Shown here: one piece after another, positions 18,196 through 57,031 of the stretch
Layout: each line of letters opens with the position of its first letter
Numbering within the stretch: position 1 is the first letter of the stretch
Source: Cyanidioschyzon merolae
Lineage: Eukaryota
DNA length: 64,000 nt
NCBI GenBank assembly: GCA_000091205.1
Contig: AP006497.2
Strand: one strand, 5' to 3'
Program-made: the position numbers and the translations under genes
The notes under the pieces: model-generated
What the model saw: only the letters and a program-made list of their open reading frames with translations
What the model was told of the DNA's origin: nothing
Databases searched by the model: none

Positions 18196-18399
18196 AACGC
18201 TTGACTAGACTTGTTTGAGGTTTGAACCACAAATGAATTAGAAAACTACACTTTGCTACGACCTGAACGGATATCCAATGTTTTACAGCTGAACAACACG
18301 TTACTGATGCCCACGACAGGGACCTTTACCACAATGAACGGAGGGGCGGAGGCAGTAGCAGCAGAAAATATTGACGATAATTCTGAGTAGTTATCCGCT

Positions 18400-22400: not shown

Positions 22401-22482
22401 AAATTGCGCTCGGTGGGCGCACCTCGGAGATCGGGAAGTCAACTGACACGACGCGCATGCCGCCGTAGAAGGGTAACGCGAT

Positions 22483-30084: not shown

Positions 30085-30548
30085 GTTCACATTCCGCTGA
30101 TAAAGCGCTTTGCTGAGTACGAGACGTTCTCGTGATGAGAGCGCAGCCCCGGTGCTTGTCTCTCGCAGTGATCACGCCCATGGCAGAGCACTGGGAACCC
30201 CCGCATTGCACTCATAAAGCGCTTTGCTGAGTACGAGACGTTCTCGTGATGAGAGCGCAGCCCCGGTGCTTGTCTCTCGCAGTGATCACGCCCATGGCAG
30301 AGCACTGGGAACCCCCGCATTGCACTCATAAAGCGCTTTGCTGAGTACGAGACGTTCTCGTGATGAGAGCGCAGCCCCGGTGCTTGTCTCTCGCAGTGAT
30401 CACGCCCATGGCAGAGCACTGGGAACCCCCGCATTCCACTCATAACGCGCTTTGCTGAGTACGAGACGTTCTCGTGATGAGAGCGCAGCCCCGGTGCTTG
30501 TCTCTCGCAGTGATCACGCCCATGGCAGAGCACTAGGAACCGGAACGA
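30085..30548. repeat. Tandem repeat, 4 copies of a 114-115 bp unit
   Basis: The unit ...aaagcgctttgctgagtacgagacgttctcgtgatgagagcgcagccccggtgcttgtctctcgcagtgatcacgcccatggcagagcactgggaacccccgcattgcactcat recurs at 30102, 30216, 30330 and 30444. Read on the minus strand (ORF 30087..30770) it encodes 38-aa repeats. Confidence 0.95.
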
Positions 30549-31900: not shown

Positions 31901-32233
31901 TTTTTCGGTCAGCAGGCGGATGAACTACCCGCGCCGTTGTTCCTATGCTGATAGCCTTGCACCGAAAACAGAACTTGGGAAACTCTATTCACACCACTGT
32001 ATCTAGTGGTCCTCTGGTTCCACTCCGCACGCCCAATCCGAAATACCATTGAATACGTCGTAGAATGAGAAGTTTCCATGCCTTGGATACGAATGGTGAT
32101 ATATGGACGCGCATCGACCGAGATAAGAAGCACTTTTTGCGATAGACCTTTCGAGCGTTGAACAACTCATAATCGATTTTTTAGTGGCATATGAACGCTG
32201 ATTACCGGAGCAATCAGAGATTCGTCTCTTTCG

Positions 32234-32700
32234 ATGAGACGTTATGAGGTAGCAATGCTAGACCTGCATATGCATCATCCTGGAGAGCGCAACCCTTTTG
32301 CTCCCAGAGATGGGCCTGAGCGGCGACTCAGTCGTACGCTCGCCCACAAATCGCTAAATGAACAGAGACCTTCAACATCTTCTCCTTCGTCGAAGCACTC
32401 TTCGTGCCTTCTCCTTCCAATATTTTTGCGTCCTGCTCTTGGACAACGTCCCTAAACATGCTTGGACAGCTGGCGAGGCGGACACGGCTGAGAATTGCTT
32501 TGAGCTGCGCTTCGTGCTTGCTGATTCTCCTTCGTTTAATGCAGTCGATGGCGTCTTCACTGTTGCCCAGTGACAGTTTTTCAGTAACGGACCAATAGGG
32601 GAATCGTTCGCGTCCAAAACATCGATGGATGCAGGGCGCTATTAGGAATCGTGTAGCTTCTGACTTGAGGCAGACTGGCCGAGATTTCCTCGTATGAAGC
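32234..32700. repeat. Copy of a dispersed repeat family shared with 48460-48700
   Basis: The DNA segment cttctccttcgtcgaagcactcttcgtgccttctccttccaatatttttgcgtcctgctcttggacaa resembles cttatacttcgtcgaagcagtcttcgcggatcctccttcccatattcttgcgtcgtgctctcagacaa at 48500. Translations also correspond: SSKHSSCLLLPIFLRPALGQRP vs SSKQSSRILLPIFLRRALRQGR, and PSPSNIFASCSWTTSLNMLGQLARR vs PPSHILASCSQTRALSITYLGQGHRR. Confidence 0.6.
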
Positions 32701-37374: not shown

Positions 37375-39197
37375 GGGCGCTGCTATCTGCCGTGGAGCGC
37401 GCGCCTCGTGCTCACGTTGGCGTTCACGTACCGCCCCAGGCGTGAAACTTGTGCCACTGGTCAAAGCTTTGAAAGTGGAAACTATCACTGCTAGGTTGTA
37501 CGCACACACCGCAACTCAAGAAGCAGGTATCCGAGCGTTCGTTCAGAGTCCGGATTCCGGGTGCGGAAATCGACGTTGGCGTTGTGAACACGATCGCGCT
37601 GCATGCGGCAACGCAAAGGGCGCATCCTCACAGAGGAGCCAGAATACGCTGAAACGTGCAGTTTTTTGGCCATTCTATATGCTTTTGAGAGAGCCACAAC
37701 ATAGCGCACAACTCCTCGCACGCTACCCCTGTACCAGGTGAAAAGAAGGACACGAAGCTGGTTGCTCTGGTTCTTTTTATTCGATTTCTTGTACAATATT
37801 AGCTGTAAATGGACAGTCTCTACATTTGGCGTACAGCGAAAGAGCGCTTTACGTACATGGACGTGATTTAAGGACTTTCGGTCATCGTTTTGAGGTGTGT
37901 ACTTGGACGCTTTGACGAAGGCATATGCTACGTAACGTTAATGAAGATGGGTCGTGACACACTCGAATGAGAGCTCGTAAAATAACCGATAGCAGTATTC
38001 CATGCGAATGCACGAGCCTCAACTCTCGTTCCTTCGCTATGCGACGCATGCTCCATATGATGCATGCGTCAGGTTTTCGATATCTCTGTTTCAAGACACA
38101 TTGTGGGGGCAGCGATTCACACACTCGGATTGACGAGGATAAACAGTCGACGTCGTACTTTGACGACATCTTCACAGCAGAGGCATCCGCGAAGGGGCTG
38201 AATTCTCATCGCTTTTAGCGACGCTATGTTATCGCGTATCTGCCAGTATCCCGCCCGATTCATCCACTGTACACCTTTCAAAAAGTATTGAATCGGATGC
38301 CGGGCTTCAAGTAGGCACACCCGCCGCAGCAGAACGAAGACGCCACGACTCCTGTAGACGATACCACGGAACTCAAGGCTATTTGGGTAGCTAGATCTAT
38401 GAAGTCTCTGGTGCTTCGTTGAGAGTCGGTGGAAATCTCTAAACATCCTTGGAGGAGCTGAGATCTCCTCTCTGGATACCTGTAGCGATTGTGTACGCAC
38501 CGTATTTTGGTTCGATTCACGTATCTCGCAGCGTAGAAAAGTTCCGCTCCGACCGGTAAAGTCGCGTTTCCTCAGCTTCGAATGTCATGAGTCCAGCCAG
38601 CCGGTACTTGCACACATATCTACCCATACATGTCCATGCACATGTACATAGAATGCGGAGCTGTCGTCGAACGCATGGGCGAGGCACGATCCCACTTCTT
38701 AGCCGCCACGAGCCCCGTGAGAATACACCAAACGACCCATAATCATCATTTGCAACGGAAATATCCATCCGCTCCAGTTACCGTGCCCTAGCGATGAAGG
38801 ATGGTACGCACCACTTGGAAGCAAGCGCAGCGAAGAGCTGAATCACTGAGCGAGACCCGCTTATGTCGCTGGGATTCCCTCGAAGCCTGTTAGGACAAAG
38901 CGCTTGGAAACCTGCCCTATTGTTTCCACATTACCCTCGAGTAAAAATCGATCTCAAATGCACTTGAATACAATACCAAAAGCGTCTAGTGACGACGCAG
39001 ATCCCTCAAAGCTCTATGGTATAGAGCGCGGCTCGCTTCACCGATCATCGAGGTGGCGCTTGTTCGGAACTCGGAAGACGTCCGCACTTGAGCGGTTTGT
39101 CGACCTGCACGCTGCTCGGGACGTGAGGCATACGTTGACCTTTAAATCTTCGAATAGCCACAGTTTTCGGTCTTCTTAACTGATTCAGCATTCGATC

Positions 39198-42087: not shown

Positions 42088-43001
42088 TTGACCCAGTAGG
42101 TCACGTGTCCTATGTGTTTGCTGTGAACGGGATTGCAGCACTCGCGAGCAGTTCATCGCGGTTTCCTCGTTCCGTTCGCTTCCAGGCGATACCAACACGC
42201 TGTCTGTTTCAACGACCATTTGCATGGGTTTGTGTGTTGACTACCAGCTGTTATTCGGATTCGAAGTAGCTCAGATATGCAGTGCTCTGATACATACGCT
42301 TGAGAGCACCTTAGCGCTCCTGGGGCATTCTGTGCGCTTGCAGCGATGTTCTTCTTGACCCTGGATGAGGAGCGACTTGGATTGCCTCGTAGCGTATCGT
42401 ACTATTTTCGCGGTAAACGAGTCGTTTAGTTCCCGAAATCGCTTTGTAAACGCAGTGTCTCTACGCCTTGAGGCAGTGCGGAGATATCGGGCTTGTGTTG
42501 CTTTTCAAGGCGAACATGGTCAGAGCCCCGGAGTTCCGCCATGTGTGCGTCCGCCTTGAGAATGCCCGGCGATAGCTTGAGTGCATCTCTTCCGAGCACA
42601 TATCAAGCAGAGTCTCAAGAATCCCCATGTTGGTATTGATTCAGTACGGAGCATCGGTGCAGCACGCCTGCGACCTCAGAACTGATGCCGGAAAACAGCG
42701 CTCCAGAAAGATCCCATCCCCGGTTTCCTGATCCAGCGTAACGCTTACCTCGACCAGCGTACCCTCATCGTCTCTAGGTGATTTCTCGGGACCTTTCGCT
42801 GCGTGGCTATCGTGGATTGGAAGCCGCCGTCTCTGTCGGGGCATCCGCAACCACCAGGCACCTGTCGTCCATGCGCATTCCAGGTCATCGCTCGCCGAGA
42901 CTTTGCTCGCAACGAGTCGTTCGCTGCTTCGTTGTGAGTCATCTTCGAGGGATTTGCCTCTGGCTCTGCGTCAAGCACTTGACGCCCTCTCTGGGGCTGC
43001 C

Positions 43002-43823
43002 TCATCGACGACGCGATCGACGGGATGCTGGTTCCGCTCTGGCGGCATCTGCAGCGGCTGTGGGCGCACTGCTCGGTTCCCCGGTGCGCTCTGGATCCGC
43101 CTCCGGCGAATTCGTCACCATGGCTTCCTCATGCTCTGACGATTCATCAACAGAAGGCGATGCTCTCGCAAATGCCTCCTCCGCTAGAGGTTCCGATTCA
43201 ATCATCCGCGTTTGCGGACTGTCGCCCAAGTTACCAGCGGTATCGCTGTGCGCATGCGTCACGATGGCGACTCGCTGGTTGACTGCGTCGGACACTGCGA
43301 GCACGGTTGAGTAGCCGCCTCCGTCTGTGGCTACTGGCAATGCTCGTTTATTGAGTTCCCGTTTCCTCTTCTGAGCCGTCACCCGGAAAACCGGAGCGGT
43401 GAGTTGGAGTTCCTCGGGCGGGAGCTCCACTGTATCGCGATCGCCTCTGAATACAGGCAGGGGAACCGCATTCAGTTCACGAGCGTGAAGCATCTGCACT
43501 TCTCGCGGTGGAGGCTGCACGAACTCTCGTTGTAGCTTGAGTTCAATAGCTAGCTTCACGTCGTTCACGTCGATCTCAGCCATGTCACCAGCTGCAGCAG
43601 CTGCGCTAACTCCAGAACCAGTGCGACTAACTTTGCCCTGGCCACGATGAGCGTGTTCTGACAAGTCCCGCGCGTCTGTCAAGACCTCTGCAACATAGCG
43701 ATAGAGAAGCTCCAGTAGTTGGTGGATGACGCGATCATCATACTCTTCGATGCCCATCGATGACAGGATGCTCGCGAGTATGCGCGCGTCCAGCGGCGCT
43801 CCAGCGACCTCCACTTTACTCAT
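43002..43823 (-). CDS. TAF9: Transcription initiation factor TFIID subunit 9 (TAF9, histone-fold)
   Basis: PLDARILASILSSMGIEEYDDRVIHQLLELLYRYVAEVLTDARDLSEHA...IDVNDVKLAIELKLQREFVQPPPREVQMLHARELNAVPLP closely parallels the TAF9 histone-fold and conserved region. Confidence 0.8.
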   Translation of the reverse strand: MSKVEVAGAPLDARILASILSSMGIEEYDDRVIHQLLELLYRYVAEVLTDARDLSEHAHRGQGKVSRTGSGVSAAAAAGDMAEIDVNDVKLAIELKLQREFVQPPPREVQMLHARELNAVPLPVFRGDRDTVELPPEELQLTAPVFRVTAQKRKRELNKRALPVATDGGGYSTVLAVSDAVNQRVAIVTHAHSDTAGNLGDSPQTRMIESEPLAEEAFARASPSVDESSEHEEAMVTNSPEADPERTGEPSSAPTAAADAARAEPASRRSRRR

Positions 43824-45154
43824 GTTGCTGCGTGTGCAAAAACTATTTCCTTAAGTGAGGTCCAAAGCGACACAAGAGTCCAGCTGAAAGTTCGAATCGG
43901 TCAGCCTCGGTGCACCGACGCCTCAGCGAAGCGAGCGTTGGTTGTGGGCAGCGGCCACGTCCGAGCGAAACCACAAGTTTGTGTTCGTTCGGGAGCTACT
44001 AGTCACCTTCGAGGCAAGCCAACCTGCCCACGGAATGAATCGACTCCTGAACCCGTACACGCTCTGAATAAACGTCACTGGTGACCGATGCGAGTGTCTC
44101 AGCGCAGCACGCGAACAGGTATAGAAATGCGAGGATGTGTGCTGGGCGTGTTGGTGCGTGCGCCAGACGCTGCGTCGGCATGAGCACGTTCCAAAGCGAG
44201 TTGTCTGCATGGACTCAGCCTTGCGCGCTTTGGAAGGTTCCTGTATGGGAACAAGGGTACTATGTGGTGTCGGTCACTGTAGGAACTGAGTAGAACAGGT
44301 TCGGTTTGGGAACTGCTTGGGTTTTCGAGCAGTCGAAGACGACTGAGCTAGCTCTCGTGGGTTGTTTGAACAAACGCTGCGTTCTTGGATAATAGTGCAG
44401 TACGTTGCTTTGGATTGACTGATAAATTTTCATCGCACTGGGTCACCGACAGAGTTACGTGCTACAAAACTGCAGGCAAAGCGCTGTGTCCGTGCACGAC
44501 AGAGCACTCGGTTGCTGCGGAGACAGCATCCGGCAGCGTGGTGCCTCCACAGCGAGCCGGATCGTTTCTTTCTCGTGCGTATTTCCCGAGGACATAGAGG
44601 ATGAGCGCCATTGCTGGGCACTAGATTATAAGGTATCGAGGCATTTTGAGCCAGACGAGGCTTAGGGCGCACGACTAGACTCAGCCTTTATCTCGTTAGT
44701 TACCAGTACGCGTTTGGGCGCATCCACGGGTTCCGTCCGAGTCATTGGACCGCTCGAGATATGGTATGCGGTATCTGGCCTGTTCGCTATGTCGACGCGG
44801 AGCCATGTGCCGCTAGACCTGATGCCAAACCAGTGTTTGTTTCGTTTGTTGAAAATGCAAGGAGCGAAGCCTGGTCAGGTTCGGTAAGCCGGCGGTGTCT
44901 CTGCTGGAGCCCATTTGAAACCTCGCTCAGTGATGCAATGATCGTATTGAGGGTCATATCTAGTTTTACATGGATATGGGGGAAACAACATGGGGTCATG
45001 CATCCGCCCGAACAGGCGGTATGAAAATGATAAGCAGGAGCGCAGACCAAGAGCCGCGTACAACTTGGTAAGCGGTAGTATGTACATTAGACGGCAGCCC
45101 CGGGGCAGCCAATGTGGTGATTGCTGCTGGCCCGAAATCGCGCTTGCCGAGTTG

Positions 45155-46177
45155 TCAGTTTAATCTGTGAATCAGCATCGCGCGGTACTCATCGTATCGC
45201 AGTTCCGCCTTGGTGCTTCGGTATGTGGTCAGGAAGACGCATTCCGACCACCAGGAGTCGGTTTCCGTCGCCGGAACGTCACCTAAGTAACCAGATTTTC
45301 TGATAAGAGAACAAATGGTCTCGTATTTGCTCCATTTCAGTTCTAGCGGAACCTCGGGTAGATACGTTGCGCTGTACCGCGAGGTCCGTGGCCTTGTGAA
45401 CCTTCTCCACGCAAATCGCCGCTGCTGAGACTGCGGTTCCACTTCAACAATCAATCCATGGACGCCAGGTTCCCAGTCCCAAACCGAGTCGCGCTCCGTA
45501 AAGTCGCTCAGAAGACTAACAACGCATAGCAGCCGGGGAAGTTCCTCGATACGGATCGGGGCGAAGCGACGATCATGCAAGGCCGCGGTGACTGCGTATG
45601 AACGCAATGCATCGTGGAGGCCGGTCGGTGTCAGTGTACCGATGCAACCGCGAAGTTGCCACACCGAGTCGGTGGTCGTCCGCAGATGCCCTCTGTCCGC
45701 GAGTATCTTCCATGTGATGAAGAGTCCGTAAGCGTCGCTGTCTGGTGGCAGCGCTTCACGGAACGGGTCGTCATCGGTTGATAGACGACCTCGAGCGCGC
45801 AGTTCCCGTTCTAGCACCGAGAACGCGTATGCACACATGACAGACGTCGCGACCACACCAGTAACCCCACCGGGGTGCTGCGCAGCCCCGCCGGCACCGC
45901 TGACCGTTGCGTTCGAAGCGTCCACCTGGGCGGTTACCGAATTGTTGAGCGGCAATCCCGGTGATTCTCTGGCTTTCGTTGCATCACTCAAGTTCCGTGC
46001 CGTTGGTTCGGTGGTAACGCTGCTCTCGTCCGACGTTGCCGCTGGGCTCCGTGTCAAGCGCTCGCCTGCACTTGCGGCCGGCTCAGTTGCTGCTGAGGAA
46101 GCTTTGTCACCAAAGTCAGTGTCTGAACGCTCTGACTGAACAGCGTCTCTTCGAATTAACTTATTCCACATAGGCAA
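45155..46177 (-). CDS. AMMECR1-domain protein (N-terminal ~110 aa low-complexity; alternative start at internal Met ~45841)
   Basis: CAYAFSVLE...LFITWKI...LRGCIGT...ALHDRRFAPIRIEELPRLLCVVSLLSDFTE...WEPGVHGLIVEV...YSATYLPEVPLELKWSKYETICSLIRKSGY matches the AMMECR1 domain pattern. Confidence 0.8.
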   Translation of the reverse strand: MPMWNKLIRRDAVQSERSDTDFGDKASSAATEPAASAGERLTRSPAATSDESSVTTEPTARNLSDATKARESPGLPLNNSVTAQVDASNATVSGAGGAAQHPGGVTGVVATSVMCAYAFSVLERELRARGRLSTDDDPFREALPPDSDAYGLFITWKILADRGHLRTTTDSVWQLRGCIGTLTPTGLHDALRSYAVTAALHDRRFAPIRIEELPRLLCVVSLLSDFTERDSVWDWEPGVHGLIVEVEPQSQQRRFAWRRFTRPRTSRYSATYLPEVPLELKWSKYETICSLIRKSGYLGDVPATETDSWWSECVFLTTYRSTKAELRYDEYRAMLIHRLN

Positions 46178-47099
46178 GCAAACGTTTTCAGGTGAACGTG
46201 CGTGCGCACGTCCATGGACGCACGCATCCGCTTCCTAGACACGCACGCGTGCACGCACGCATGTCAAGTCTTTCAACTCAATTCTGTTTCACCCCTGCTG
46301 CAGCGTATAGCAGGTGATCGATATTACGATGCAAAGTACCGTTTGAATCGTTGGCGAATTGAATGTAGGATACATATTCTTTACTGAACATTGGGAAGAG
46401 CACTGCACTCCTCTTTCGGGTCAGTAGGACCATAGGAGAGGTACGGTTGGGGAACACTGACAGGAACCCATGTATGCTGCCTTTACCAAGACCCGATATT
46501 CTAAAAGTCTGCTTATGGTCAATGGTAGAAAAGGACCCGTTGATCACTTTAGGAGAAGCAAAAGCGACGACAATGGTCGCCACGAGCGTCTCTGTTTCTC
46601 AATACGTTGTCTGTTTGGCCCTGAAACCCTGAGCGTTCCGTCACCAAAAAGTCCGATTTCGATCACGGACATCGCGCACCGAAATCGCAATGGCGGCGTT
46701 CCTGGAACGTCACAATCGGTACGAAGCACATGGACGTAGGTTTGTTTCTTAAGTCGATAAGACTCGCTTCGGAAAAACGGTCGGTGCTCATATGGGTATT
46801 CGCCGAGCAGGGCGCCCGTTTTATGAACGATCGAACTCGAAGAGAACGACGACATCGGCGTATGTTCTAGCTGAAGTGGGTTTATTCGGCAGCCTCAGTT
46901 CCGCTCGTAGAGAAGGCTCATGTAACAGCACCACCGACTTTGCCGAATCATTGAAATCTTTTCCCTGATTTCTGGTGACGTCCTTCTAGTAGATAACGTG
47001 GCATTTACCTGTTCCCGTTGCGTTCGAGCTTTTGCCGATTCTGCCGAGGCGTAGAGCTGCTTCTCATTCCTTCGTATGCTCTGTGGTTGAATCTCATGG

Positions 47100-47740
47100 A
47101 TGGAATGTTTTCCGTCGTGAAACGGAATGATCGATCGATCGTTCGAATTGATGAAGCCTTCAGCACAGTGACACACCGGGGCACATTTCGTATGCCTTCG
47201 GGAAACCGTTTTCCTTCAGGCAAGGTCCTCTCCCGATGGCATAAAGGAGGGGATTCAGTTTCAGAAATAAAAAACCCCAAAGAAAAGTTATGCACATCGA
47301 ATTCGAGTACTCTGGAGGGTCGTCACCCCCGGGTCCGACAAAACCAGAGCGAAAAGTTCTCTTCTAGCCTACCATCGAGCGAAGAAGAACAAATGACGAA
47401 GGAGACGAGGGAGAGTGGGACCTTGGCCAGAAAAAATGTGTATCTGACAGGACGGTGACGAGACGTAGTGTCACAGAGGGCACGAGTTCGAGGACTACTT
47501 GCATTCGTGAGTTCAACCAGAGGACACGAACGCAGGGACTCTGTGAACCAAGACTTGAACGCCGCCATGAATATCCGGAGACCTGCGGCGCTGAAGACAA
47601 GACCCGAAGCGCTGATGCCATTCAACTCTGTGGGGCACCCTCTCACACTCGAATATTGCACGGAGATGCTGAAGCCGATGGCGGGCGGCCGGTCGGAAAC
47701 GGCTTGGAGGCGTCTGTCTGGAGGTATATACGGATAACCT
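47100..47740 (+). pseudogene. Degenerate relic of the TnpB/Fanzor-like nuclease family (3' portion, copy 4)
   Basis: ORF 47468..47737 reads RARVRGLLAFVSSTRGHERRDSVNQDLNAAMNIRRPAALKTRPEAL...MAGGRSETAWRRLSGGIYG. This is homologous to copy 2's [48 protein letters not shown]...[21 protein letters not shown]. The antisense ORF 47323..47844 also matches antisense ORF 15727..16218. It is diverged and interrupted. Confidence 0.55.
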
Positions 47741-48203
47741 CGATGGTTATAGAGCTGCTCAGTTTCACTGATAGGTACGTTGACACGCACACCTCTGAAC
47801 ACGCCGCGGTTGCCCAGCGCCCCGTTGTATGCGAAGCACAGCATTCTGAGTTATCGGACCCAGCACGTCCTTTTCTGTTTCTGTCTATTTTTTCCTTGCA
47901 GCTATTCAACGAACACAATGTATTTAATGAATGGGAGGAACGTCACGAAAAGACTTGACACGCTCACCGCTAGCGAGCGAGGAATGGTTATATGTGTTCA
48001 AGCCAATCACTGCACCGTCCTGAGGTTGACGAACGGACCCTCTCATGGCTCGTATCCTGAACGCTGTCGTCCCAAAATCCAAGTTTCCAGACTCTTTCTA
48101 CAAGAATGTCTCCTGGTCACTCAATTCTCGTCACATATAGTCTATTAGGAAAACGATTAAAGAAGGCACCAGACGAGCAGTTTCCATTCCGTGCATACGA
48201 ACG

Positions 48204-49229
48204 GTGATGATGGGAAACGGATGCGAGGGAGAAGCGCGCCTCTATACAAGACGGTCGCGCGTCCAGCTCCACACAATCGATTTCGTACTGACACGCGAAT
48301 CCTCATTCCAGGACAGAAAGGTATTCGTCTCACTCGATAGGATTCCGTTCGCGAACAACGGCGGACCTGTGTACGGGTACTCAAACCGGGGCCGAACCGC
48401 TGTTTACAATGAAGAAACTAAAACGAGCATGACGACGGCATCAGTCCTAGTGGAGGAGCTGTCGTGTGGTCTCGTATTTATCGCAGATGGCTCGGGATCG
48501 TTCTCCACCTTATACTTCGTCGAAGCAGTCTTCGCGGATCCTCCTTCCCATATTCTTGCGTCGTGCTCTCAGACAAGGGCGCTTTCTATCACATATCTGG
48601 GTCAAGGGCATCGGCGGAATGTGTGGTGCTTCAAGCTTTATTCTGAAGAGCAGCTGCGCTGTAAATGCAGAACGCTTCGGTACTTGGGCAACGCAAAACT
48701 GGGCCTGTCGAGAACGGGTGCAGCATGTTCCCGCTGCAAACTCGACTCGTCGATGTTGTTATTGTGGGTTCTGCCCTGCACCCGAAACTCACGAGCGGCG
48801 TCGCAGCTAGGCCCTCATCTCTGGACCCATGCATCGTTGCTCTTGACACGTGCGGGAAACCTTGCAGATGCTGAGCATTTTGGGCTCGATCTCCAGAATG
48901 AGCTGAGAAAGCAGTCGGCGCTCAAATCCAATCTGTTCCGTTGCCGTATCGCCAGTCGCACGGCTCCCGGGACGCAACCCGTCTCTGCATCGCTTCCAGG
49001 CTCGCTTGACGCACTCTGGGCCAGCTACTGGGCTAATGCTCCAAACACCCGGTGCATGACCCGCAGACAAGATATTGCACAGCGAGCGTGGACGCGTCAT
49101 TCTGGCGGCCCGCAGGTGACCTTGGATCTGGAAGCGCCTTTCTCCATCTCACGATGGATCATGCCTGATGTAAATGAGAACATTTACGATGTTGGCGCCT
49201 GGGTTCACCATCGAAATCACAATCTCTAG
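48204..49229 (+). CDS. Hypothetical 341-aa ORF; its 5' third overlaps the dispersed repeat, so coding status is doubtful
   Basis: A long ORF with no recognised domain. It contains the repeat segment 48460-48700. Confidence 0.2.
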   Translation: MMMGNGCEGEARLYTRRSRVQLHTIDFVLTRESSFQDRKVFVSLDRIPFANNGGPVYGYSNRGRTAVYNEETKTSMTTASVLVEELSCGLVFIADGSGSFSTLYFVEAVFADPPSHILASCSQTRALSITYLGQGHRRNVWCFKLYSEEQLRCKCRTLRYLGNAKLGLSRTGAACSRCKLDSSMLLLWVLPCTRNSRAASQLGPHLWTHASLLLTRAGNLADAEHFGLDLQNELRKQSALKSNLFRCRIASRTAPGTQPVSASLPGSLDALWASYWANAPNTRCMTRRQDIAQRAWTRHSGGPQVTLDLEAPFSISRWIMPDVNENIYDVGAWVHHRNHNL

Positions 49230-49462
49230 GAATTCTCTGACGACATGCGCGCAGAGGTGTCCGCAAAACGGAAACAGCTGTTGGAATGGATCTGAGCGTG
49301 ATCTCATCCGTGCCCGCACAAGGAGATGCGATCCGCTTCTACCAAATCAAGGTTTGATACATGGCGGACAAGTGCCTTACTGATCTCAGCCCGAAAGACC
49401 GTTCCGAACGCGGTTTCCGTTCCTTGGTTCATGCGGCAAGCAAGGGTTCGACGTCGTATCGG

Positions 49463-50479
49463 TTAAGTCCGACGATGACGTTTGGACACTGGAACTTCGT
49501 CCTCGTCTTCGTCCTCGTCAACGGCATCCTCGTCGTCGTCGTCGTCGTCGGCTTCCTCTTCCTCTTCGTCTTCATCAAAGTCTCCGCCCCCGTCCTCATC
49601 GTCATCGAACTCATTATCCTCATCATCCTCTTCTTCACTAAACTCATCGTCCTCGTCTTCTTCGTCGTAGACATAGTCGCCCCCGTCATCATCTTCATCG
49701 TCCTCGTCATCAACGTCGCCGGCGAGGTAGTGCCCGCCCGAAGGGCCTGACGCCTCATCTTCCGAATCCGCCCCATTATTGTCATCTTCCTCCTCTTCGT
49801 CCTCGTCATAGTCACCCTCTTCGTCCTCTTCTCCATCCTCCGCGTCACCACGGTCGTCTTCCTCGTCTTCCTCGTCCAGATCCGCCGGCCTTGTTTTACC
49901 ATACGCCTGTCGAAGCACTGCGTCCTCCTGTTGAATCTCTTCCTCGTCCTCTTCGTATTCCTCATCGTTCTCGTCTTCCTCTGCCCCCTCACCTTCAGCC
50001 TCTTCGTCGTCCTCAACGTCCTCGCCATTTTCATCCTTACCATCTAGCACCATAAGTCCGCGAATCTCGCGGAACATAAACGCGCGATAGTCTTTCAGGT
50101 TGCTCACCGGGCATCCGTAGCAGTCGACGACCCTAAGGTGCAAACAACCGCGCAACGGCTTCAGCGAATCGAGCGTGCGAATAGCGTTTCCAGAAAGATT
50201 CAATACCTCCAAGCGAGGAGCGTGTGTAGGCAAAAGCTCCAGCCCGGCACCAGTTAGGCGGTTGTCGCTGAGCTCCAGCCTCCGCAGCGCCGGAAGCATC
50301 GGAAACCCCGGGGTCAACGAAGTCAATCCGCATCCGTTCATGGACAGAACCTCCAGCGAATCGAAGTTCTCGAGCCCACTTGGATGCGATTGTTTGCAAC
50401 GGTTGTCCAGCACTAACTCCTTGACCTGTCGAGGGAGTTGCTCCCCGATGGCCTTCTTGATTGCCGCCTCCATCTCCAA
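49463..50479 (-). CDS. Acidic leucine-rich nuclear phosphoprotein 32 (ANP32) family member: N-terminal LRR cap plus long poly-Asp/Glu tail
   Basis: MEMEAAIKKAIGEQLPRQVKELVLDNRCKQ...LEVLSMNGCGLTSL...LRRLELSDNRLTGAGLELL...LEVLNLSGNAIRTLDSLKPL...LHLRVVDCYGCPVSNLKDYRAFMFREIRGLMVLDG, followed by ~170 residues of D/E-rich tail. Confidence 0.85.
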   Translation of the reverse strand: MEMEAAIKKAIGEQLPRQVKELVLDNRCKQSHPSGLENFDSLEVLSMNGCGLTSLTPGFPMLPALRRLELSDNRLTGAGLELLPTHAPRLEVLNLSGNAIRTLDSLKPLRGCLHLRVVDCYGCPVSNLKDYRAFMFREIRGLMVLDGKDENGEDVEDDEEAEGEGAEEDENDEEYEEDEEEIQQEDAVLRQAYGKTRPADLDEEDEEDDRGDAEDGEEDEEGDYDEDEEEEDDNNGADSEDEASGPSGGHYLAGDVDDEDDEDDDGGDYVYDEEDEDDEFSEEEDDEDNEFDDDEDGGGDFDEDEEEEEADDDDDDEDAVDEDEDEDEVPVSKRHRRT

Positions 50480-51253
50480 AAGGTGGCGTCTTTCGACGAT
50501 CTAGCTTCTTCCTGTCTCCGAAAATGATTCAAATCGATGATCCTCTGTGTAGCGTAACGCGGTCAGACTGCTATCCCGTTCCTTACGACGGCCAGCAGAG
50601 ACTAGTCGGAGACTCTGCTGCTCGCCTCAGCTCGCTACAGATGAAGAGCGTCCTCTGCAGGCTGAATGCGCGTGTGCGCGGGCAGCGCACGCACCCGCGT
50701 CCACGTCGCCGAGCGATTCGCCACGGCACGCCGCCCAGCGCAGGCGACGCAGTCCAGCGGCGCGACGGAGGTTCGCGCGCGTGTGCGCTGCCCACATGCG
50801 CATCCACGTGACTGTCCCCGCCGCCGCTGCTGTTGTGCCGCGCGGAGATTCCACAGACAGCGATCGCCTTCGGGCGCGCATGCGCTTCAGGTGGCCGATC
50901 GCGTGACACCGAGGTGTCCGCTATGGTGTTTCACTTCAATTGTGTTCCAATCGCCGCTGCGTGCTATGGAATGCTTTTTCGTGGTTTATGGCGGATGCGT
51001 TCAAAGTGAGTTTCTTTGAAGAAATGAAAAATTCACGGGGAAGTGCGTGGACATGGAAATCGGGGGTTCTGGCGGGCCGTCATCACTGAGTTCTACGAAA
51101 ACGATAAGAATCCTCTTCTCGCCGACCATCGAACGAAGAAGCGCAAGTGACGACGAAGAAGAGGCGAGGTAGGCAAGAAAAGGTGTTTGCCCGACGGGAC
51201 GATGACGAGTGTGTCGTGGTACGGGGCCACGAGTTCGATGAATCCTTACATTG

Positions 51254-51270
51254 GAGTGTGTGTGTGTGTG
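51254..51270. repeat. (TG)n microsatellite
   Basis: gtgtgtgtgtgtgtgtg read directly. Confidence 0.9.
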
Positions 51271-51279
51271 TGCAGTCAA

Positions 51280-51970
51280 CGGCAATGCACGAAAGGAGTT
51301 CGTGAACCGAGCCCTCAATATCATGCGCTGCGCTGTCAAGACTCCGCACTTTTTTATATCGTCAGGACTGATCTGGCACTTTTCCATCTCGAGCGTCTGA
51401 AGTGTACACCCCAGCTCGTGGTCTATGCAGGACGTCCGGAACTCGTCTATCGGGAATGTGACAAAACGCCTTGCGCACTCCTTGTAAGCGCGTGTCGGTG
51501 AGGCTGGAGTGCACCCTGTTTTCGACGCCCAGCGCCCTGCTCCCTATGCTGCTACGAGGCTTTGACGCTTGTCCTCCTTGAGGGTGCTCAGCGCATGAAA
51601 AAAGTTCCCAAATGCACGCCATTCCGCACAGTACAAGTTCATATGCGGACGATGGCATGGACATTGGCTTTTGAACGCTCTCTCCGCCGCTGCTTCCATT
51701 GCCGCTCTCTTAGCCCCGAGTGAACATGTGCCGGTCTCTCTTGTCCTTGCAGTTCCCGAGTCAGCAGTCGAGGGATGTCGGTGGCAGCGTTCAAGTTCCG
51801 ATTTCGCCACTTCCCGCCCGTGGTAACGCGTCCCGCGCGTAGGGCCAAGTTGCGGTCCGCACGTCGTTCCCCACGTTCATCTTCTGTGCACATACAGCTT
51901 CGGTGTGTCTTTCGCTGCGCTGACACCGGACTGTGATCAGACGTTCGCATATTCGTCTGCCGCATCTCTC
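51280..51970 (-). pseudogene. Degenerate relic of the TnpB/Fanzor-like nuclease family (3' portion, copy 3) with an internally inverted RuvC-III segment
   Basis: ORF 51544..51810(-) reads ...HMNLYCAEWRAFGNFFHALSTLKEDKRQSLVAA, cf. copy 2 [40 protein letters not shown] 51001..51387(-) reads MEKCQISPDDIKKCGVL, cf. [19 protein letters not shown]. The plus strand at ~51295-51340 reads EFVNRALNIMRCAV. That is the RuvC-III block in opposite orientation to its flanks, with 4 codons deleted. Confidence 0.55.
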
Positions 51971-52632
51971 ACGCGACCGAGCGCCGCCCTGTGGCATGCG
52001 AAGGCTTGCTTCAGCGCTCGATGCATGTCCGGGACTGGCGTAGAAGGCGCTCGTCGAATCCATTCTTTGTCTGCATACCCGATGCCGTGACGAACGATGA
52101 CGGGCTGGTTCCGGGCGATTCCCTTTGCGAGTGCGCTGTATGGTGCAAAAGCAAGCATACGCAGTCCCGTTTGAGAAGGGATTCGTGGAATGCGATATTG
52201 GCCTTGGTGAGGCAGGCACCGGAATGATAACACTCATAGGAGAACCAGTCGAGTGATTTCGATCCGTCCACGCTGTTCTACAGCGAAGCGGCGATCCAGT
52301 CTGCACCAGAGGCGATCGCTGCGACGACTATAGTCAAGGACTTCATTCCATGCAACCAGAAGAGGCGAGTGCATCTGGGCGCGAATCCCCGTGTAACGTA
52401 CGATGCAGCTGTCGAATTCCCTGTCTCGCGGATGACCACAGGGACACAAGGATTTGTCTTTCGAAAGGATTCGATCATTTGATACGAGAAGCACGATGAG
52501 GCTTGGGCGTGAGCGTGTGAACACGTCGTCAAGGAGCGACGTCGGGCTCCGTGCCGCGCCAGTCCAGTGGCGAGCATTGCTGTGCCCACGGGTTGCCTTG
52601 AAACAGAAAGATCGAAAACATGAAGCATGCAT
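51937..52632 (-). CDS. Possible glycosyltransferase group-1 (GT4)-like C-terminal fragment, interrupted
   Basis: ORFs 52234..52632(-) and 51937..52233(-) show a weak resemblance (GLRMLAFAPYSALAKGIARNQPVIVRHGIG, cf. EGFGlvllEAmAcGtPVia...gG). Very tentative. Confidence 0.2.
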
Positions 52633-54673
52633 GATTTGCGCATGCTATACACAAGGAACGCGATAGCGGTAGAGGCTTGTGCCTACAAATTGGTTCATAA
52701 AATCGGCTATTTTACAAACCTTTGTTTGGCGGCGTCGAGAAGCATCTCGATCCCGGTGACGTATCGAGTTACAGGGGCAACGCGTCGAAAGTGGCACGCA
52801 GTAACGCCGACCGGGAATCCGGAAACTGCGCATGAATTTCCAAGCCCTGATTGTTGCACTTTGAGTGTCTAGACCATATATCTAGGACAATGCCGGGAAA
52901 AAAAATCGAAAGGCAGGGCCAGCGCGTGCAGTGCAGTATCCCGTATTCATCCAACGGTGGCACAGCGCTGCGGGAATCGGGCACCATTGAGGCGGGGCGT
53001 GTGTTGCGATGAATTCTATAATCAAAAGAACGTTCTGTTCTGAGCACGGGACCGAACGCTCGATGGATATCATCACCCTGGAAAGCGTCCATTATGCCTC
53101 GCCTTACGTTCAGGTACCAGCCGCCACTAGGCATACTTTTCCTCAGAGATACTAGTCGTCATATGTGTTCAACACTGTTCCGAATCTTCCGAAAATGCCG
53201 GGCAAATTGCGCTGGCTGTGGAGCGCGCTTCGAATGTAGTGCACCAGTGCCGAGAGCGCTTCGACGGCTCGTGCCATCGCGTCTCTGGTACGCCAGGCGA
53301 AGACGAGCCAACGTTGTTGCTGGTGTAAAACTTCTGAAAGGTGCCATGGATTTGGCATTCGCAGGCAGGAGTTGCACAGGCGACACCGACAGCGTACTAT
53401 CAAAAAAATAGGCGCATGGCATGTCGTAGCATAGGGAGCCTTCGTCTCATGAGTGTGTACTGGAAACACGAGTGGCTGCCGCACAGAAGCTGCGGATCGC
53501 GCCGAGAAGCAGCTGGGCATGCGCACAACCCGAGTAATGGGGCACACGCGAGCGTCTCGACGCGACTCCAGTGCTCCAGAATGCCTGGAAGCGTGTGCCG
53601 CGGCCTAGGCTGCCAGGCAAGCCTCGTTCGAGCGGCACCGTCCGGCGCGAGTCGAGTGCGACCTCCCCTCCCACGAGTCAGGCATCCGGGTGCCGGACGC
53701 AAATGATCCTCAGTCGGTATAGCGCGTGCGCATATTGTAGCGACGTGCTCCGATATGGCCGCAACACGTAGGCCACTGGCGCAACTTTTTCGCAGCCCGA
53801 CATACTCTAAACTGCCCAGAGGCTTCTCACTGCGCTTCATGCCGCAAAGCGTTTCCAGTCAGTACTTAGGGCGGTGTCGAGCGCCCTGCTCGACGCAGCG
53901 TTCTCGCGCGCCGCATCAAGTCGTTCTGCAATTCATCATCATTGTTCCGCCTCCGTGACTCGATTCAGTCGCATGCCCTCTAGACTTGCCATCCCGAGTC
54001 GCTGCCCGCGCATTGCGTCCACGAAAGCTCGTCTGTGTAGACAACAAGCGAATCGTTCCAGTCACAACGCTCGTCCCCGTGGACGCGATACAGGATACCC
54101 GCGTCGCCACACGCAGCGGTTACTCGAAGCGTCCCGCTCCTGCCGCTGATACGAGTGCTGCGGCCTCAGCGTCGATATGCCTGCGCAGCGCATGTTTCCG
54201 GCCTGCTTTTTTTTCATTGACAAAACGTTTACTTAGGCCAGCGTTCTCCGATTACGCGCATTTTTCTTTTCTTACTTTTTTCTGTGAGTGTTTTTTTCCC
54301 CGCCCTGCTGCGGAGGCGCGGCGCCCGCGCGATCGATGAACGCATCCCCGCGGATCGTTGCAAAAGCGCGACACGTCACAGCGCCGCATGCGTGCGTGCG
54401 TGCCGGCGGCGGCGGCGGCGGGAACAGCACTGTGGCATGCGTGCGTGCCGCGAACGCTCATTCAACAGTAGGCTCTCAGCGCAGCGTTCTGTTTTTGGGC
54501 GAATACAGGGAGCACCGGCAGTGTTCATCGAGAAGGAGTGTACTACGCGCCTGTGCGAGCGGTGACCGGGCGAAGGACCATTCGGTAGGTATCACTTGGT
54601 ACTCGTTCGAGAACGCCAGAGTTTTCTGCAGAAGCTTTTCGGATTTCGGTAAGAGGAGCCAGCGCGCCGAGGA

Positions 54674-57031
54674 ATGCTTGGTGATAGCACACGTCCCGTG
54701 TTCCTCTCGCCGGGCTTTTGGTGGATAGCCACAGCGCTCCTTTCAACGTATGCCGTTGTCGACGCGCACCTTGGTCACCTCACCAGTGTTTTCGAACGCG
54801 TTGCCGTGGCAGTGCCTTTGGGCTGGGCGGTGTCCTCGTGGCTCGCGTATTTGTTTGCGTCGCTGCGCTACCAAACGCTTGATGTACGATCCGTTCGAGC
54901 TGCTTGGCTAGTGCAAGCTGCAATCGGCTTGTTTCATGTGTGGCTGGTTCAGCGACGGAGAAAGGCGGGTCATGAACCAGCTGGCACCGTGAGGGACTCG
55001 CCGGCCCGCAGTGCGAAGGTAGCACCGCACAGGCCTGGGATGGGCGTCACAGCATTGACGGCTTTGATTGTCTGGCCCATGGTCTCGAGTCGTTTCCTGC
55101 GGAACGAACCAGATGGTAGCGTGAGCTCAGGTGGCGCAACCTGGGCCGATTTGCCGTTCCACATGAATATAGCGGCATCGTTCCTCTATGGAACGAACCG
55201 GGAATTCGACTATCGTCGCACAGAGGCAGCATTTTATGCAGGTTCGCGCCTTGTTTATCCGCTACTTCCAGACTTTCATGCAGCGTGTCTGCGGGTATCG
55301 GGCATGAGCTGGCGCATGAGTTTTCTGCTACCGGCACTGTTTCTGGCTGTATCAGCATCGGCGCTGCTGTATGCGGTGAACTGGCGTTTAACCGGCAGTC
55401 GCGCCGCTGCCGTGCTCTCCGTTCTCCTCGTCATGTGTGCAGGTGGTACCGGGTCCTTTGAGCACTGGATCGAGCGAGGCTGGAGTCACGCGACGCGCGT
55501 AGCCTGGGATGTGGATCCGGTCCAAGCTGACCGTGAGGGCGGCAGACAAGAGATCCTGTGGTTTGCCTACTTTGGGCATGTGTTCTTGCCACAGCGACCG
55601 GCCACGTATGCAATTCCCCTGATCCTCATTGTTATCCTGCTGCTTGTTCTTGCCATGACCGAAGGTGTTCCGCTTCAACAGAGCGCTATTGTGTTGAGGC
55701 TGGCGGCCTTTGTCGCCGGTATCTTGCCCTTATTCCAGGCGCACGCATTTGTTGGTGCAGTGATTCTCTGCTCTGTGCTCTTCATTATGGATTTCGACCG
55801 ATGGTACACACATATGGATCTTCTCTGGCGAGGGTGGCTCACAGCCGCTTTCATCGGTTTGGCGTTGTCGGCGCCCCAGCTTCCGGTATACATCGGGAGG
55901 GTGGCATCGTCGAGGGAGCAAAGAGGCTTTCTTCGCTTCTCTTGGACGGCAATGTCATCCTTCAACAGAGGGTTTTGGAGAACCTGGTTCCGCGCCCTGA
56001 CTCTACACGTTCCAGTCTATACACTTGTGTTTGGCATTGTGTCCGTGGTGCTGTTGGCACAGGCGCTTGCAGATCTGGAGAGACTTTTCGGAGTACGCGG
56101 ATACTTTCCGATCGTGGAACGCATCCAAAACCGCGTTGTGCACTTGCTGCGGGGCCTTGCTCCGGCTTTTAGCGGGCCTTCACATTACTGGCGTTTGAAG
56201 TTCTTCCCCGCATTCGCTGCAGTTTTCGTTTTCTGTAATCTTTTCCTCATTCAGCCATGGGTCAAGGATAACGTCAAGCTCGTGTATATTTGGCTCTTTC
56301 AGGCTGCAGGTGTCGTTGGGTATCTGCTGGTGCGTTTATGGCGGCGCGGTGGGCCTCTGGGCAAGCTCCTGACCCCGCTGATCCTGTTTTTCATGCTCTT
56401 TAGCGGCTTTCTGGGGATGCGCCGAGAATGGGGTGGCGTTACGGCTGAGCTCTTCACACCCGCCGATCAAGAGCTAGGTGAATGGATCAAAATGAACACG
56501 CATTGGCGATCGGTGTTTCTGACTGGCGAAGAGCACGTCAATCCCGCTTGTGCCCTCGGCGGAAGATCGCTGTATCTTGGCTACCTGGGCTGGGTGTGGT
56601 CCCATGGTCTGCCGAATATTCACGAGCGAGTGCAGCTTCGGGACAAAGTGCTTCGAGGTGATGATCGGAATGGGACAGAGCTCTTGAATCTGCTCCGATT
56701 CCGGCGAGTGAGTCATATTTTGCTGGAGCCAAGAATACCGGATCCAGGCTTTGAGAGCATTTTTAACCCGTCCGACGTATGGCTCGGGTACGAGAACCAA
56801 GGATGGCGTCTGTACTTCATCAAGGATGTCGTTCTCGGTGATCGGCCCATCGAGTCTATCTCGAGAGAGCAGCTCTTCTTCTCGACTGGAGTCTCGCTCG
56901 TTGCACTCTGGATGGCCGCTATCTGCTTGTGGTATTTGCCGTGCGTGTTTACGCGGCAGAAGACCGAAGAAGACGGGAACTACGTGCTGCCGCATGGCAC
57001 GATCGGCGGTCGACGCATGAAAGCGCTGTAG
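54674..57031 (+). CDS. Large polytopic membrane protein (>=10 predicted TM helices), family not recognised; possibly a GT-C-type glycosyltransferase-like or transporter-like protein
   Basis: ORF of 785 aa with many long hydrophobic segments (WIATALLSTYAVV, LVYPLLPDFHAACL, LLPALFLAVSASALLYAV, AIPLILIVILLLVLAMT, LAAFVAGILPLFQAHAFVGAVILCSVLFIM, VPVYTLVFGIVSVVLLAQ, etc.). No diagnostic motif was found by eye. Confidence 0.65.
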   Translation: MLGDSTRPVFLSPGFWWIATALLSTYAVVDAHLGHLTSVFERVAVAVPLGWAVSSWLAYLFASLRYQTLDVRSVRAAWLVQAAIGLFHVWLVQRRRKAGHEPAGTVRDSPARSAKVAPHRPGMGVTALTALIVWPMVSSRFLRNEPDGSVSSGGATWADLPFHMNIAASFLYGTNREFDYRRTEAAFYAGSRLVYPLLPDFHAACLRVSGMSWRMSFLLPALFLAVSASALLYAVNWRLTGSRAAAVLSVLLVMCAGGTGSFEHWIERGWSHATRVAWDVDPVQADREGGRQEILWFAYFGHVFLPQRPATYAIPLILIVILLLVLAMTEGVPLQQSAIVLRLAAFVAGILPLFQAHAFVGAVILCSVLFIMDFDRWYTHMDLLWRGWLTAAFIGLALSAPQLPVYIGRVASSREQRGFLRFSWTAMSSFNRGFWRTWFRALTLHVPVYTLVFGIVSVVLLAQALADLERLFGVRGYFPIVERIQNRVVHLLRGLAPAFSGPSHYWRLKFFPAFAAVFVFCNLFLIQPWVKDNVKLVYIWLFQAAGVVGYLLVRLWRRGGPLGKLLTPLILFFMLFSGFLGMRREWGGVTAELFTPADQELGEWIKMNTHWRSVFLTGEEHVNPACALGGRSLYLGYLGWVWSHGLPNIHERVQLRDKVLRGDDRNGTELLNLLRFRRVSHILLEPRIPDPGFESIFNPSDVWLGYENQGWRLYFIKDVVLGDRPIESISREQLFFSTGVSLVALWMAAICLWYLPCVFTRQKTEEDGNYVLPHGTIGGRRMKAL

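Follow-up and report, generated by a model that had tools for sequence, protein, structure and literature searches.

Fanzor proteins are eukaryotic, TnpB-like, RNA-guided nucleases of the RuvC type. Non-autonomous derivatives of DNA transposons that have arisen by internal deletion are well known, with Ds from Ac and the deleted P elements as examples. In Cyanidioschyzon merolae, the Fanzor1-encoding element CMe-1A is represented by about 150 old copies, which are ~80% identical to their consensus, are ~3 kb long and have no terminal inverted repeats (Bao & Jurka 2013, Mob DNA 4:12; PMC3627910). The same paper describes mariner/IS630-type transposons with a captured Fanzor1 gene. The family was thus already reported in this genome in 2013, and dead fragments of it matter little by themselves. 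The gain from the locus described here is corrective, as an apparent inversion becomes the junction of two relics, and descriptive, as the family appears to have left at least one internally deleted derivative, in two copies.

The window, that is, the whole stretch of 64,000 nucleotides that was analysed, lies on chromosome 15 of C. merolae 10D; locus tag CMO170C is among its exact protein matches. A host gene of the ANP32/PAL31 type (49463-50473, minus strand) stands between the relics. Its product contains leucine-rich repeats (Pfam LRR_9 and LRR_4) followed by a long acidic tail and is an exact match to BAM81532.1, annotated as 'similar to proliferation related acidic leucine rich protein PAL31'. 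The intergenic DNA on both sides of this gene is non-functional debris of Fanzor-bearing transposons, the product of ordinary decay of an already described transposon family. In the overall model, which we regard as probable, two relics called copy 4 and 3b are copies of one internally deleted derivative of the CMe-1A type, and 3b abuts a separate relic, 3a.

A reading made from the sequence alone had assigned the relics to a nuclease family, which on profile evidence is Fanzor1. A profile of 34 relatives matches the solved Fanzor1 structures 9cf0 (E 8e-19), 8gkh (E 4e-11) and 9cer (E 1e-5), and the relics match the same protein profile (copy 4 with E 5e-11, 3a with E 3e-11). These structural matches came after the alignment had been widened; a PDB profile search with close relatives only returned nothing. 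The catalytic residues D421, E592, R657 and D658 are invariant in the alignment of the 34 relatives, and the set formed by the RuvC-I Asp, the Glu beside [TS][TS] and the RuvC-III Arg-Asp is complete in the family and broken in the relics. Pfam scans of the stitched reference protein and its close relatives found no family, PF07282 did not match the stitched 753-residue reference translation, and the consensus of the CMe-1A-type lineage holds no CxxC...CxxC zinc finger between [TS][TS] and RD. A precomputed match to PF26935 names only a domain of unknown function (DUF8286). AlphaFold2 run on a shallow alignment gave a mean pLDDT of 31. At the 3' end of the element, the search for a guide RNA (ωRNA) produced no Rfam match and the tRNA scan was empty; the 3' 326 nt have a fold z of -1.9, and the covariation term in the consensus fold of five copies is unfavourable, with few sequences behind it. 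The family matches what has been written about CMe-1A in host, size, gene content, divergence of its copies and absence of terminal inverted repeats, and it is a putative member of that subfamily.

Members of the same family also form an inverted pair within the window (15691-18311 and 22484-24879), whose arms are 98.6% identical. The relics around the host gene are 63-75% identical to the fuller copies, and fuller copies of different loci are ~82% identical to each other. The proposal that two old relics share a nuclease family with the palindrome copies was thus borne out, and the divergence of the relics, far above that of the inverted pair, supports the further proposal that the family has long been active. 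Such divergence would accord both with long activity and with the published description of an old family.

Copy 4 (47254-47740, plus strand) consists of a 5' segment joined straight to the 3' end of the element, with ~2 kb skipped. Its 3' segment (47476-47740) encodes residues 662-745 of the stitched reference, which belong to the Fanzor C-terminus, and runs on into the beginning of the 3' tail. It is detected by nhmmer (E 8e-33; profile 2549-2792 at 47476-47716), by tblastn (47468-47716 against reference residues 662-745, 52% identity, E 4e-17) and by blastn (47485-47653, 76%, E 1e-28), and likeness to the reference fades at ~47716-47740. The plus strand and the 3' end at 47740 that had been proposed for this copy are thereby confirmed. 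The RuvC-III motif has decayed to NQDLNAAMNI, in which NQD marks the loss of the Arg of 'RD'. The 5' segment (47254-47460) corresponds to profile positions 360-554, roughly reference 22636-22828, and includes N-terminal codons. Its origin in the 5' region is detected only by a DNA profile built from five fuller copies (nhmmer E 7e-6, modest support alone); the pairwise comparison of the upstream part with the reference copy is not significant (z = 2-2.5), and a protein search with the ORF upstream of the C-terminal part returned only itself. The two segments meet at a deletion junction with filler (47461-47475), where profile position 554 is joined to 2549 and ~2 kb has been lost. An origin of the upstream region from the 3' end of the element, in reverse complement, was considered and rejected. 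The sequence-only reading had delimited the whole locus as 47100-51970; family similarity was undetected in 47100-47254, and 51694-51970 belongs to an older relic, 3c, which is discussed below.

The same structure recurs on the other side of the host gene. Relic 3b (50923-51345, plus strand) carries the deletion junction of copy 4, between a 5' segment at 50923-51218 (profile 271-553; nhmmer E 7e-15), which contains a relic start codon at 50988 (MADAFKVSFF...), and a 3' segment at 51232-51345 (profile 2558-2650; residues 662 to ~706), which is collinear with copy 4 and with the reference. The junction and filler at 51219-51231 are the same as those at 47461-47475. The 5' part of copy 4 recurs in direct orientation at 51041-51252 (69% identity, E 2e-18), and the alignment of copy 4 with 3b runs continuously through the junction, the direct repeat being 69-71% identical. 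Both relics share the junction 554|2549-2558 and its filler, while the flanks outside the unit are unrelated. Copy 4 and 3b, as far as their sequences tell, represent in the same orientation a single non-autonomous derivative to which a CMe-1A-type element gave rise by internal deletion. In this derivative, ~200-300 bp of the 5' region (the ORF start and, in 3b, a bit of upstream sequence) would be fused to the last ~290 bp. Because the two copies have the same junction, the deletion occurred once; the unit would then have been multiplied, whether it was mobilised in trans or duplicated locally. These two routes are indistinguishable because just two copies were seen, both of which stop short of the element's 5' end: the 5' side of the derivative extends only to profile position 271-360, and its 3' end is kept by copy 4 alone. 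Two other Cyanidioschyzon loci (L024 and L026), of which ~44 kb was searched, yielded no further copies of the derivative.

Within the 3' segment of 3b, downstream of a (GT)n microsatellite (51256-51272), lies the block EFVNR..ALNIMRCAV (51296-51337, plus strand), on which the earlier inversion claim turned. Read on the plus strand, the peptide NGNARKEFVNR----ALNIMRCAV (51278-51337) is without the four codons DFNA, which include the RuvC-III catalytic Asp. Could this short block be a chance similarity, or the whole arrangement an assembly artefact? On its own, the block gives only a tblastn E of 0.12 and a profile E of 0.2-0.7, as chance would allow. Its DNA similarity nevertheless stands at z = 6-8, a score that 0-1 of 1000-2000 shuffles reach, with no signal for the block on the opposite strand in the shuffle test, and it continues, in collinear order, the direct repeat detected at E 2e-18. 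As for an artefact, eight independent contigs (L001-L004, L027, L028, L030, L031) are collinear with the relic region at 99.0-99.9% identity, a single alignment to L027 covering 42461-54872. As all eight have an identical structure, the arrangement is real, and we give this explanation almost no credence. A search for diverged orthologous loci that might date the events returned only contigs ~99% identical.

Relic 3a (51342-51652, minus strand) spans residues 553-657, from profile position 2213 to ~2520-2553, and comprises RuvC-II and a decayed zinc-finger region. It is identified by nhmmer (E 4e-59, minus strand), by tblastn (51651 to ~51339 against residues 553-657, 54% identity, E 4e-34) and by blastn (51619-51342, 73%, E 1e-39). 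It contains an in-frame stop, and its 5' part and 3' end are missing, so that neither RuvC-I nor RuvC-III is present. The minus strand proposed for what had been called copy 3 holds for this relic, as does the convergent arrangement, copy 4 on the plus strand and 3a on the minus strand flanking the gene at 49463-50473. To judge from its minus-strand match and the lack of inverted-repeat similarity to 3b, 3a is a separate fragment that meets 3b tail to tail. All relic pieces are non-coding; since copy 4 has lost the RuvC-III Arg, 3b the Asp, and 3a has a stop, none of them can encode a nuclease.

The sequence-only reading had instead seen one minus-strand copy 3, in which a RuvC-III block of ~60 bp was inverted in place by a hairpin or foldback event, a scar that would suit a palindrome-forming element. 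It is true that the opposite-strand block immediately adjoins the break of 3a, that the break falls in a conserved hairpin with a possible 4-bp overlap, and that another part of the window has an inverted pair of the family. The outer flank of the block, however, is plus-strand sequence of the 5' region that runs for more than 400 bp and includes the junction of copy 4, so that the block continues the plus-strand relic at 50923-51345. In-place inversion would also require residues 658-679 to be inverted along with it, whereas codons 662-674 precede the block and are in plus orientation, and the rest of the 3' end that it predicts on the minus strand at the position of the block is absent. Nor do 3a and 3b have complementary arms: no inverted repeat links 50900-51345 with 51342-52100, and in the lack of such mutual similarity the two are not arms of a palindrome. 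Because the block is the collinear continuation of 3b and 3a is separate, there is no 20-codon inversion within one copy; the inversion and its interpretation as a foldback scar do not stand, and we consider this reading quite improbable. The block once taken for inverted is what 3b retains of its C-terminal coding sequence.

A larger inversion of ~3.9 kb (~47476-51341), would have flipped ANP32 and split a single minus-strand copy, one half becoming 3a and the other the 3' segment of copy 4. In its favour, the two pieces lie on opposite strands and their coverage is almost exactly complementary (553-657 and 662-745). Against it, the junction at the left edge of this 3' segment recurs with its filler in 3b, so that the edge is no unique breakpoint; reversing the event would make an equally odd junction on the left; and 3b is a second copy of residues 662-706, which is impossible from a single ancestor. 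We reject this inversion as very improbable, because 3b has the junction of copy 4.

The precise point at which 3b gives way to 3a is harder to fix. In the junction zone (51311-51345), whose strand is ambiguous and which may include a 4-bp CTCC overlap at 51342-51345, the plus reading matches RuvC-III DNA at 16-19 of 27 positions and the minus reading, as an ungapped continuation of 3a, at 15-18 of 31. The loss of the four codons, which had been noticed before, is thus seen when the zone is read on the plus strand, yet it is uncertain, as is the exact breakpoint, because the last 30-35 bp fit either strand about equally. Two relics might also meet at ~51311, with 3a running ungapped to ~residue 667, 3b ending after EFVNR, and the likeness of ALNIMRCAV to AINIRRCAV being largely coincidental; no 4-codon deletion would then be needed. 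For such a junction speak the 18/31 match of the fixed-register ungapped continuation of 3a to the family (binomial p 4e-4), the nhmmer alignment, which carries 3a to 51312, and the fact that where the two templates differ the relic agrees with each about equally. On the other hand, the plus reading reaches 19/27 against the reference copy (p 6e-6) with 7 of 9 residues identical, and it alone is significant in a local alignment search. A junction at ~51311 is therefore unlikely in our estimation.

As the simplest history of the contact between 3b and 3a, two copies would have inserted convergently, and a deletion closed by end-joining would later have taken away both tails; 3b and 3a would each have lost its 3' end at the point of contact. 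The break point lies within a small conserved hairpin of 6-7 bp (CTGGAG-N7-CTCCAG, reference ~24705-24725), which hints faintly that hairpin breakage or microhomology joining might have made the junction. On its 3' side 3a ends at reference 24566-24598, close to where the derivative's 3' segment begins (~24591), a coincidence with a ~1-2% chance under independent events by a post hoc estimate; a hotspot shared by both, or a link between the events, may lie behind it. That all three near-coincident breakpoints, namely the limit of 3a, the 3' start of the derivative and the end of 3b in the hairpin, mark a recurrent hotspot of breakage or strand switching is very doubtful. If it were true, the hotspot might be a structured site, in the DNA or in an RNA template, on which transposition of the Fanzor element relies, and the locus would bear the marks of how the element itself works, not of random decay. 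A map of truncation points across the ~150-copy family might shed light on the movement of those Fanzor1 elements that have no recognisable transposase.

Relic 3c (51694-53003, minus strand) shares the strand of 3a and lies a short way upstream of it, but the two are not collinear. In 3c, a remnant of a DDE_3 transposase (IS630/Tc1-mariner type) is followed by a TnpB/Fanzor-like C-terminus with RuvC-II, a C4 zinc ribbon and RuvC-III. By nhmmer, 3c matches 9066-10370, 1253-2484 and copies in L024 and L026 (E 1e-37 to 1e-70), and copies of its family are 53-61% identical to each other over the 3'-terminal ~400 bp. The consensus of six copies reaches 28.3 bits for PF07282 (cut-off 26.3), E 1e-11 with the Fanzor1 profile and E 4.5e-6 with DDE_3; a PDB search with the consensus returned nothing. 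The lineage carries the C4 motif CHRC...CMKC, unlike the CMe-1A-type lineage. Taken together, these comparisons indicate that 3c belongs to a different and older family than 3a, 3b and copy 4, and its recognition in the same intergenic region is a descriptive gain. Like the mariner/IS630 elements with captured Fanzor1 genes, the 3c unit combines a DDE_3 remnant, a TnpB-like C-terminus and a C4 zinc ribbon; unlike them, it is fused, deleted and very old, with no intact copy recovered. A family of the 3c type is absent from the C. merolae listing of Bao & Jurka (2013; PMC3627910).

With the solved Fanzor1 proteins of Parasitella parasitica (9cf0), Spizellomyces punctatus (8gkh) and Guillardia theta (9cer), the family of copy 4, 3a and 3b shares profile-level homology over the WED/RuvC half, and it conserves the D of RuvC-I, the E in VDEFRT and the RuvC-III motif RD..NAA.NI, although the relics themselves are fragmentary, their motifs broken and stop codons present. 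CMe-1A is the closest described element: the host is the same, the Fanzor1-encoding element measures 2.4-2.9 kb here against the ~3 kb reported, the copies are old and diverged (~82% between fuller copies here, ~80% to the consensus in the paper), and terminal inverted repeats are not evident here either. Short one-end derivatives such as TE-N2_CMe exist as well (Bao & Jurka 2013; PMC3627910), whereas a derivative that joins 5' and 3' regions by internal deletion, the present copies and the tail-to-tail junction are not part of that account. In comparison with Ds and the deleted P elements, the termini at this locus are too poorly kept to show mobilisation over local duplication. The derivative nevertheless resembles them in that a single junction with a few filler bases unites the parent's 5' and 3' regions, the coding capacity is lost, and an identical junction is found in more than one copy.

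Relics of the Fanzor1 element lie on both sides of the ANP32-like gene BAM81532.1 (49463-50473, minus strand), which is annotated as 'similar to proliferation related acidic leucine rich protein PAL31' and whose product combines leucine-rich repeats with a long acidic tail. Cyanidioschyzon merolae strain 10D has exact or near-exact counterparts of the window's SRP54 and TAF9 proteins, the chromosome 15 gene CYME_CMO170C lies at 54674-57031, and the G+C content (55%) and intronless genes on both strands are consistent with this species. Across all relic pieces, eight contigs assembled independently, taken from metagenomes and a Logan run, stay collinear with the window at 99.0-99.9% identity, and one of them covers 42461-54872 in a single alignment; therefore, the arrangement is not an assembly artifact. 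Near the gene, gene callers also report an ORF of 341 codons (48204-49229), for which Pfam gives no match and which may be spurious.

The reference elements are two nearly identical inverted copies of approximately 2.4-2.6 kb, copy 1 (15691-18311, minus) and copy 2 (22484-24879, plus), which are 97-99% identical (98.6% in the identity comparison of copies). They stand head to head, separated by a 4.2-kb spacer (18312-22483) that encodes a reverse transcriptase in frameshifted form (RVT_1, E 2e-19). In-frame stops and two frameshifts interrupt the reading frame of copy 2; should copy 1 have the same defects, the pair was duplicated after inactivation. Residue numbers refer to a 753-residue conceptual translation stitched from this pair. 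A Pfam scan of the stitched protein found no family, and the precomputed Pfam label of its lineage is only a DUF (PF26935, DUF8286). The protein has close relatives in metagenomes and 1444 relatives in a 50%-clustered protein library, and a profile built from 34 relatives hits three solved Fanzor1 structures, from Parasitella (E 8e-19), Spizellomyces (E 4e-11), and Guillardia (E 1e-5). Positions that never vary among these 34 include the RuvC-I Asp, the Glu of VDEFRT, and the RD of NRDxNAAxNI. Within the Fanzor ORF, a 75-78-bp tandem repeat encodes units with an acidic 16-residue stretch, whose number differs between copies (window 16624-16923 and 23870-23948; contigs L024 10540-10618, L025 10426-10651, and L026 11226-11374).

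Copy 4, left of the ANP32-like gene, was confirmed on the plus strand, where 47468-47716 corresponds to residues 662-745 (tblastn, 52% identity, E 4e-17). Sensitive blastn of the regions flanking the gene against each other revealed a direct repeat, 47291-47505 versus 51048-51252 (69% identity, E 2e-18), which starts about 180 bp upstream of the C-terminal coding part of copy 4. Pairwise comparison did not reveal the origin of this upstream stretch, and no relatives of its ORF were found. A DNA profile of five fuller copies, the inverted pair plus three on Cyanidioschyzon contigs, placed it: copy 4 consists of a 5' segment (47254-47460, profile 360-554, E 7e-6) followed directly by a 3' segment (47476-47716, profile 2549-2792, E 8e-33). 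To the right of the gene, relic 3b, also on the plus strand, has the same composition (50923-51218, profile 271-553, E 7e-15; 51232-51321, profile 2558-2650). Since the profile positions on both sides agree, the two relics carry the same internal deletion of approximately 2 kb, and they align continuously across its junction, including a filler of about 13 nt.

This shared junction bears on a short peptide match, NGNARKEFVNR----ALNIMRCAV (tblastn, 51278-51337, plus, E 0.12), which the sequence-only reading had taken for a block inverted within a single minus-strand relic, copy 3. On the plus strand, the block resembles the whole element with z = 6-8, only 0-1 of 1000-2000 shuffles scoring as well, and its reverse complement gives z of about 0; the resemblance is not due to chance. 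Inversion in place is contradicted by the block's left flank, which is plus-strand 3b with the deletion junction of copy 4. The block stands where copy 4 predicts it, right behind a (GT)n microsatellite that has taken the place of a few codons, and by position and strand it appears to be the remaining C-terminal part of 3b rather than an inverted piece of a minus-strand copy.

The minus-strand relic itself holds as relic 3a, which runs from 51651 to about 51339 (residues 553-657, 54% identity, E 4e-34, tblastn); neither the block nor the stretch 51694-51970 belongs to it. In the profile search it spans 51652 to 51342 or 51312 (profile 2213 to approximately 2520-2553, E 4e-59). Copy 4 and 3a, the two larger pieces, are 76% and 73% identical to the element by blastn. 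As 3a and copy 4 are complementary in residue coverage, one ancestral copy split by a 3.9-kb inversion might have produced both; this is contradicted by 3b, whose 3' segment starts with the identical junction that would have to be the breakpoint in copy 4.

Alignment to the reference traces 3a securely to ...AAAAAGTGCGGAG, ending at 51342, and 3b to ...GTCAAGACTCC, ending at 51345, with a possible 4-bp CTCC overlap. In the 27-31 bp ahead of this meeting point, the plus reading matches RuvC-III DNA at 16-19/27 positions and the minus reading matches an ungapped continuation of 3a at 15-18/31; where the templates differ, the relic agrees with each about equally. Because these last base pairs are ambiguous in strand, the breakpoint falls somewhere in 51311-51345, and the four codons said to be missing from the block are absent under the plus reading only. 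Under that reading, 3b ends within a small hairpin, CTGGAG-N7-CTCCAG, conserved in the fuller copies, which is the one feature that hints, weakly, at a hairpin-related break; a comparison of 3a with 3b found no complementary arm in common. Three breakpoints, namely where 3a ends, where the 3' segment retained by copy 4 and 3b starts, and where 3b ends in the hairpin, lie close together (at about 24566-24598 and 24705-24725 of the reference copy; window 51311-51345 and 47461-47476), which may reflect coincidence or a hotspot. No further partial copies of the element were found in about 44 kb of other Cyanidioschyzon sequence.

Relic 3c includes a repeat of about 380 bp that occurs three times in the window (51694-52074, minus; 2122-2484; 9996-10370) and in other Cyanidioschyzon loci, and it extends to 53003. 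Since its RuvC-III region lies upstream of the RuvC-II region of 3a, 3a and 3c are distinct fragments rather than a single copy extending to 51970. Family copies lie at 51694-53003 (minus), 1253-2484 (plus), 9066-10370 (plus), and 37703-38176 (minus), and on other contigs (L024 1804-3036; L026 16443-17721 and 2410-1182). A six-copy consensus stays open in frame across the final ~135 codons (3' ~400 bp), where it contains GYGTGRGNG..., EHLTT, CHRC...CMKC, and a further 10-residue motif. Its score for the Cas12f1-like TNB / OrfB zinc-ribbon domain exceeds the Pfam threshold (28.3 bits, E 2e-6), and it matches the Fanzor1 profile (E 1e-11); its upstream part matches DDE_3, an IS630/Tc1-mariner type transposase, just under the Pfam cut-off (E 4.5e-6). 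The consensus joins a DDE_3 transposase remnant to a TnpB/Fanzor-like C-terminus that retains a C4 zinc ribbon. The search brought up five predicted proteins from other samples, all of them short (186-216 aa), and in two an open frame retains the TnpB-like C-terminal motifs. With copies 53-61% identical over the aligned 3'-terminal ~400 bp, 3c is an older relic.

The window has further repeats. One of approximately 700-800 bp (E 5e-38) lies just downstream of copy 4, overlapping the start of ORF 48204-49229 (47800-48593, plus), and a second time (31585-32458, plus) immediately 5' of a nearly complete, very old Fanzor copy at 32769-34504. Relics of different elements meet end to end within about 40-60 bp at 47740-47800 (3' end of copy 4, then 5' end of this repeat) and at 51652-51694 (3' end of 3c, then 3a), which may indicate insertion beside resident copies or simple crowding, gene-free intervals being few. 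Long minus-strand ORFs contain or adjoin tandem repeats of 114 bp (30090-30541, 97-99% identical, seen as three overlapping 224-nt matches with 114-bp spacing) and 117 bp (31633-31866, two units, 98%).

The alignments establish the identities, strands, and common junction of the relics; their history probably ran as follows. An internally deleted, non-autonomous derivative would have arisen once and come, by mobilization or local duplication, to two direct-orientation copies 3.7 kb apart flanking ANP32. To the right of the gene it would have stood opposite a minus-strand fragment of its own family, and deletion with end-joining would then have removed both 3' tails. This history leaves without explanation that the end of 3a nearly coincides with the deletion junction. 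None of the pieces can encode a nuclease; RNA family (Rfam) and tRNA scans found nothing, and a search for conserved RNA structure gave nothing convincing.

The relics share 63-75% identity with the fuller copies (K2P 0.3-0.5); copy 4 shares 71% with 3b, and fuller copies share about 82% from one locus to another. Together with the 98.6% of the inverted pair, these values fit the proposal of long activity; the copies that the family left behind differ greatly in age, in agreement with Bao & Jurka 2013 (PMC3627910). The nuclease family is already known, since that work reported the Fanzor1 family CMe-1A in the same genome, with ~150 copies of ~3 kb, each ~80% identical to the consensus and without terminal inverted repeats. 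The ~700-800-bp repeat may correspond to its short 5'-end derivative, TE-N2_CMe. In the alignment of the 34 relatives, this Fanzor1 lineage (window 24470-24600) has no conserved CxxC...CxxC between VDEFRT and NRD, and the zinc finger, part of the family motif in Bao & Jurka, appears to have been lost from it. As the same paper lists only one Fanzor family for C. merolae, the 3c lineage may be undescribed; taken as a whole, the locus shows a known transposon family decaying in the ordinary way where genes are sparse.
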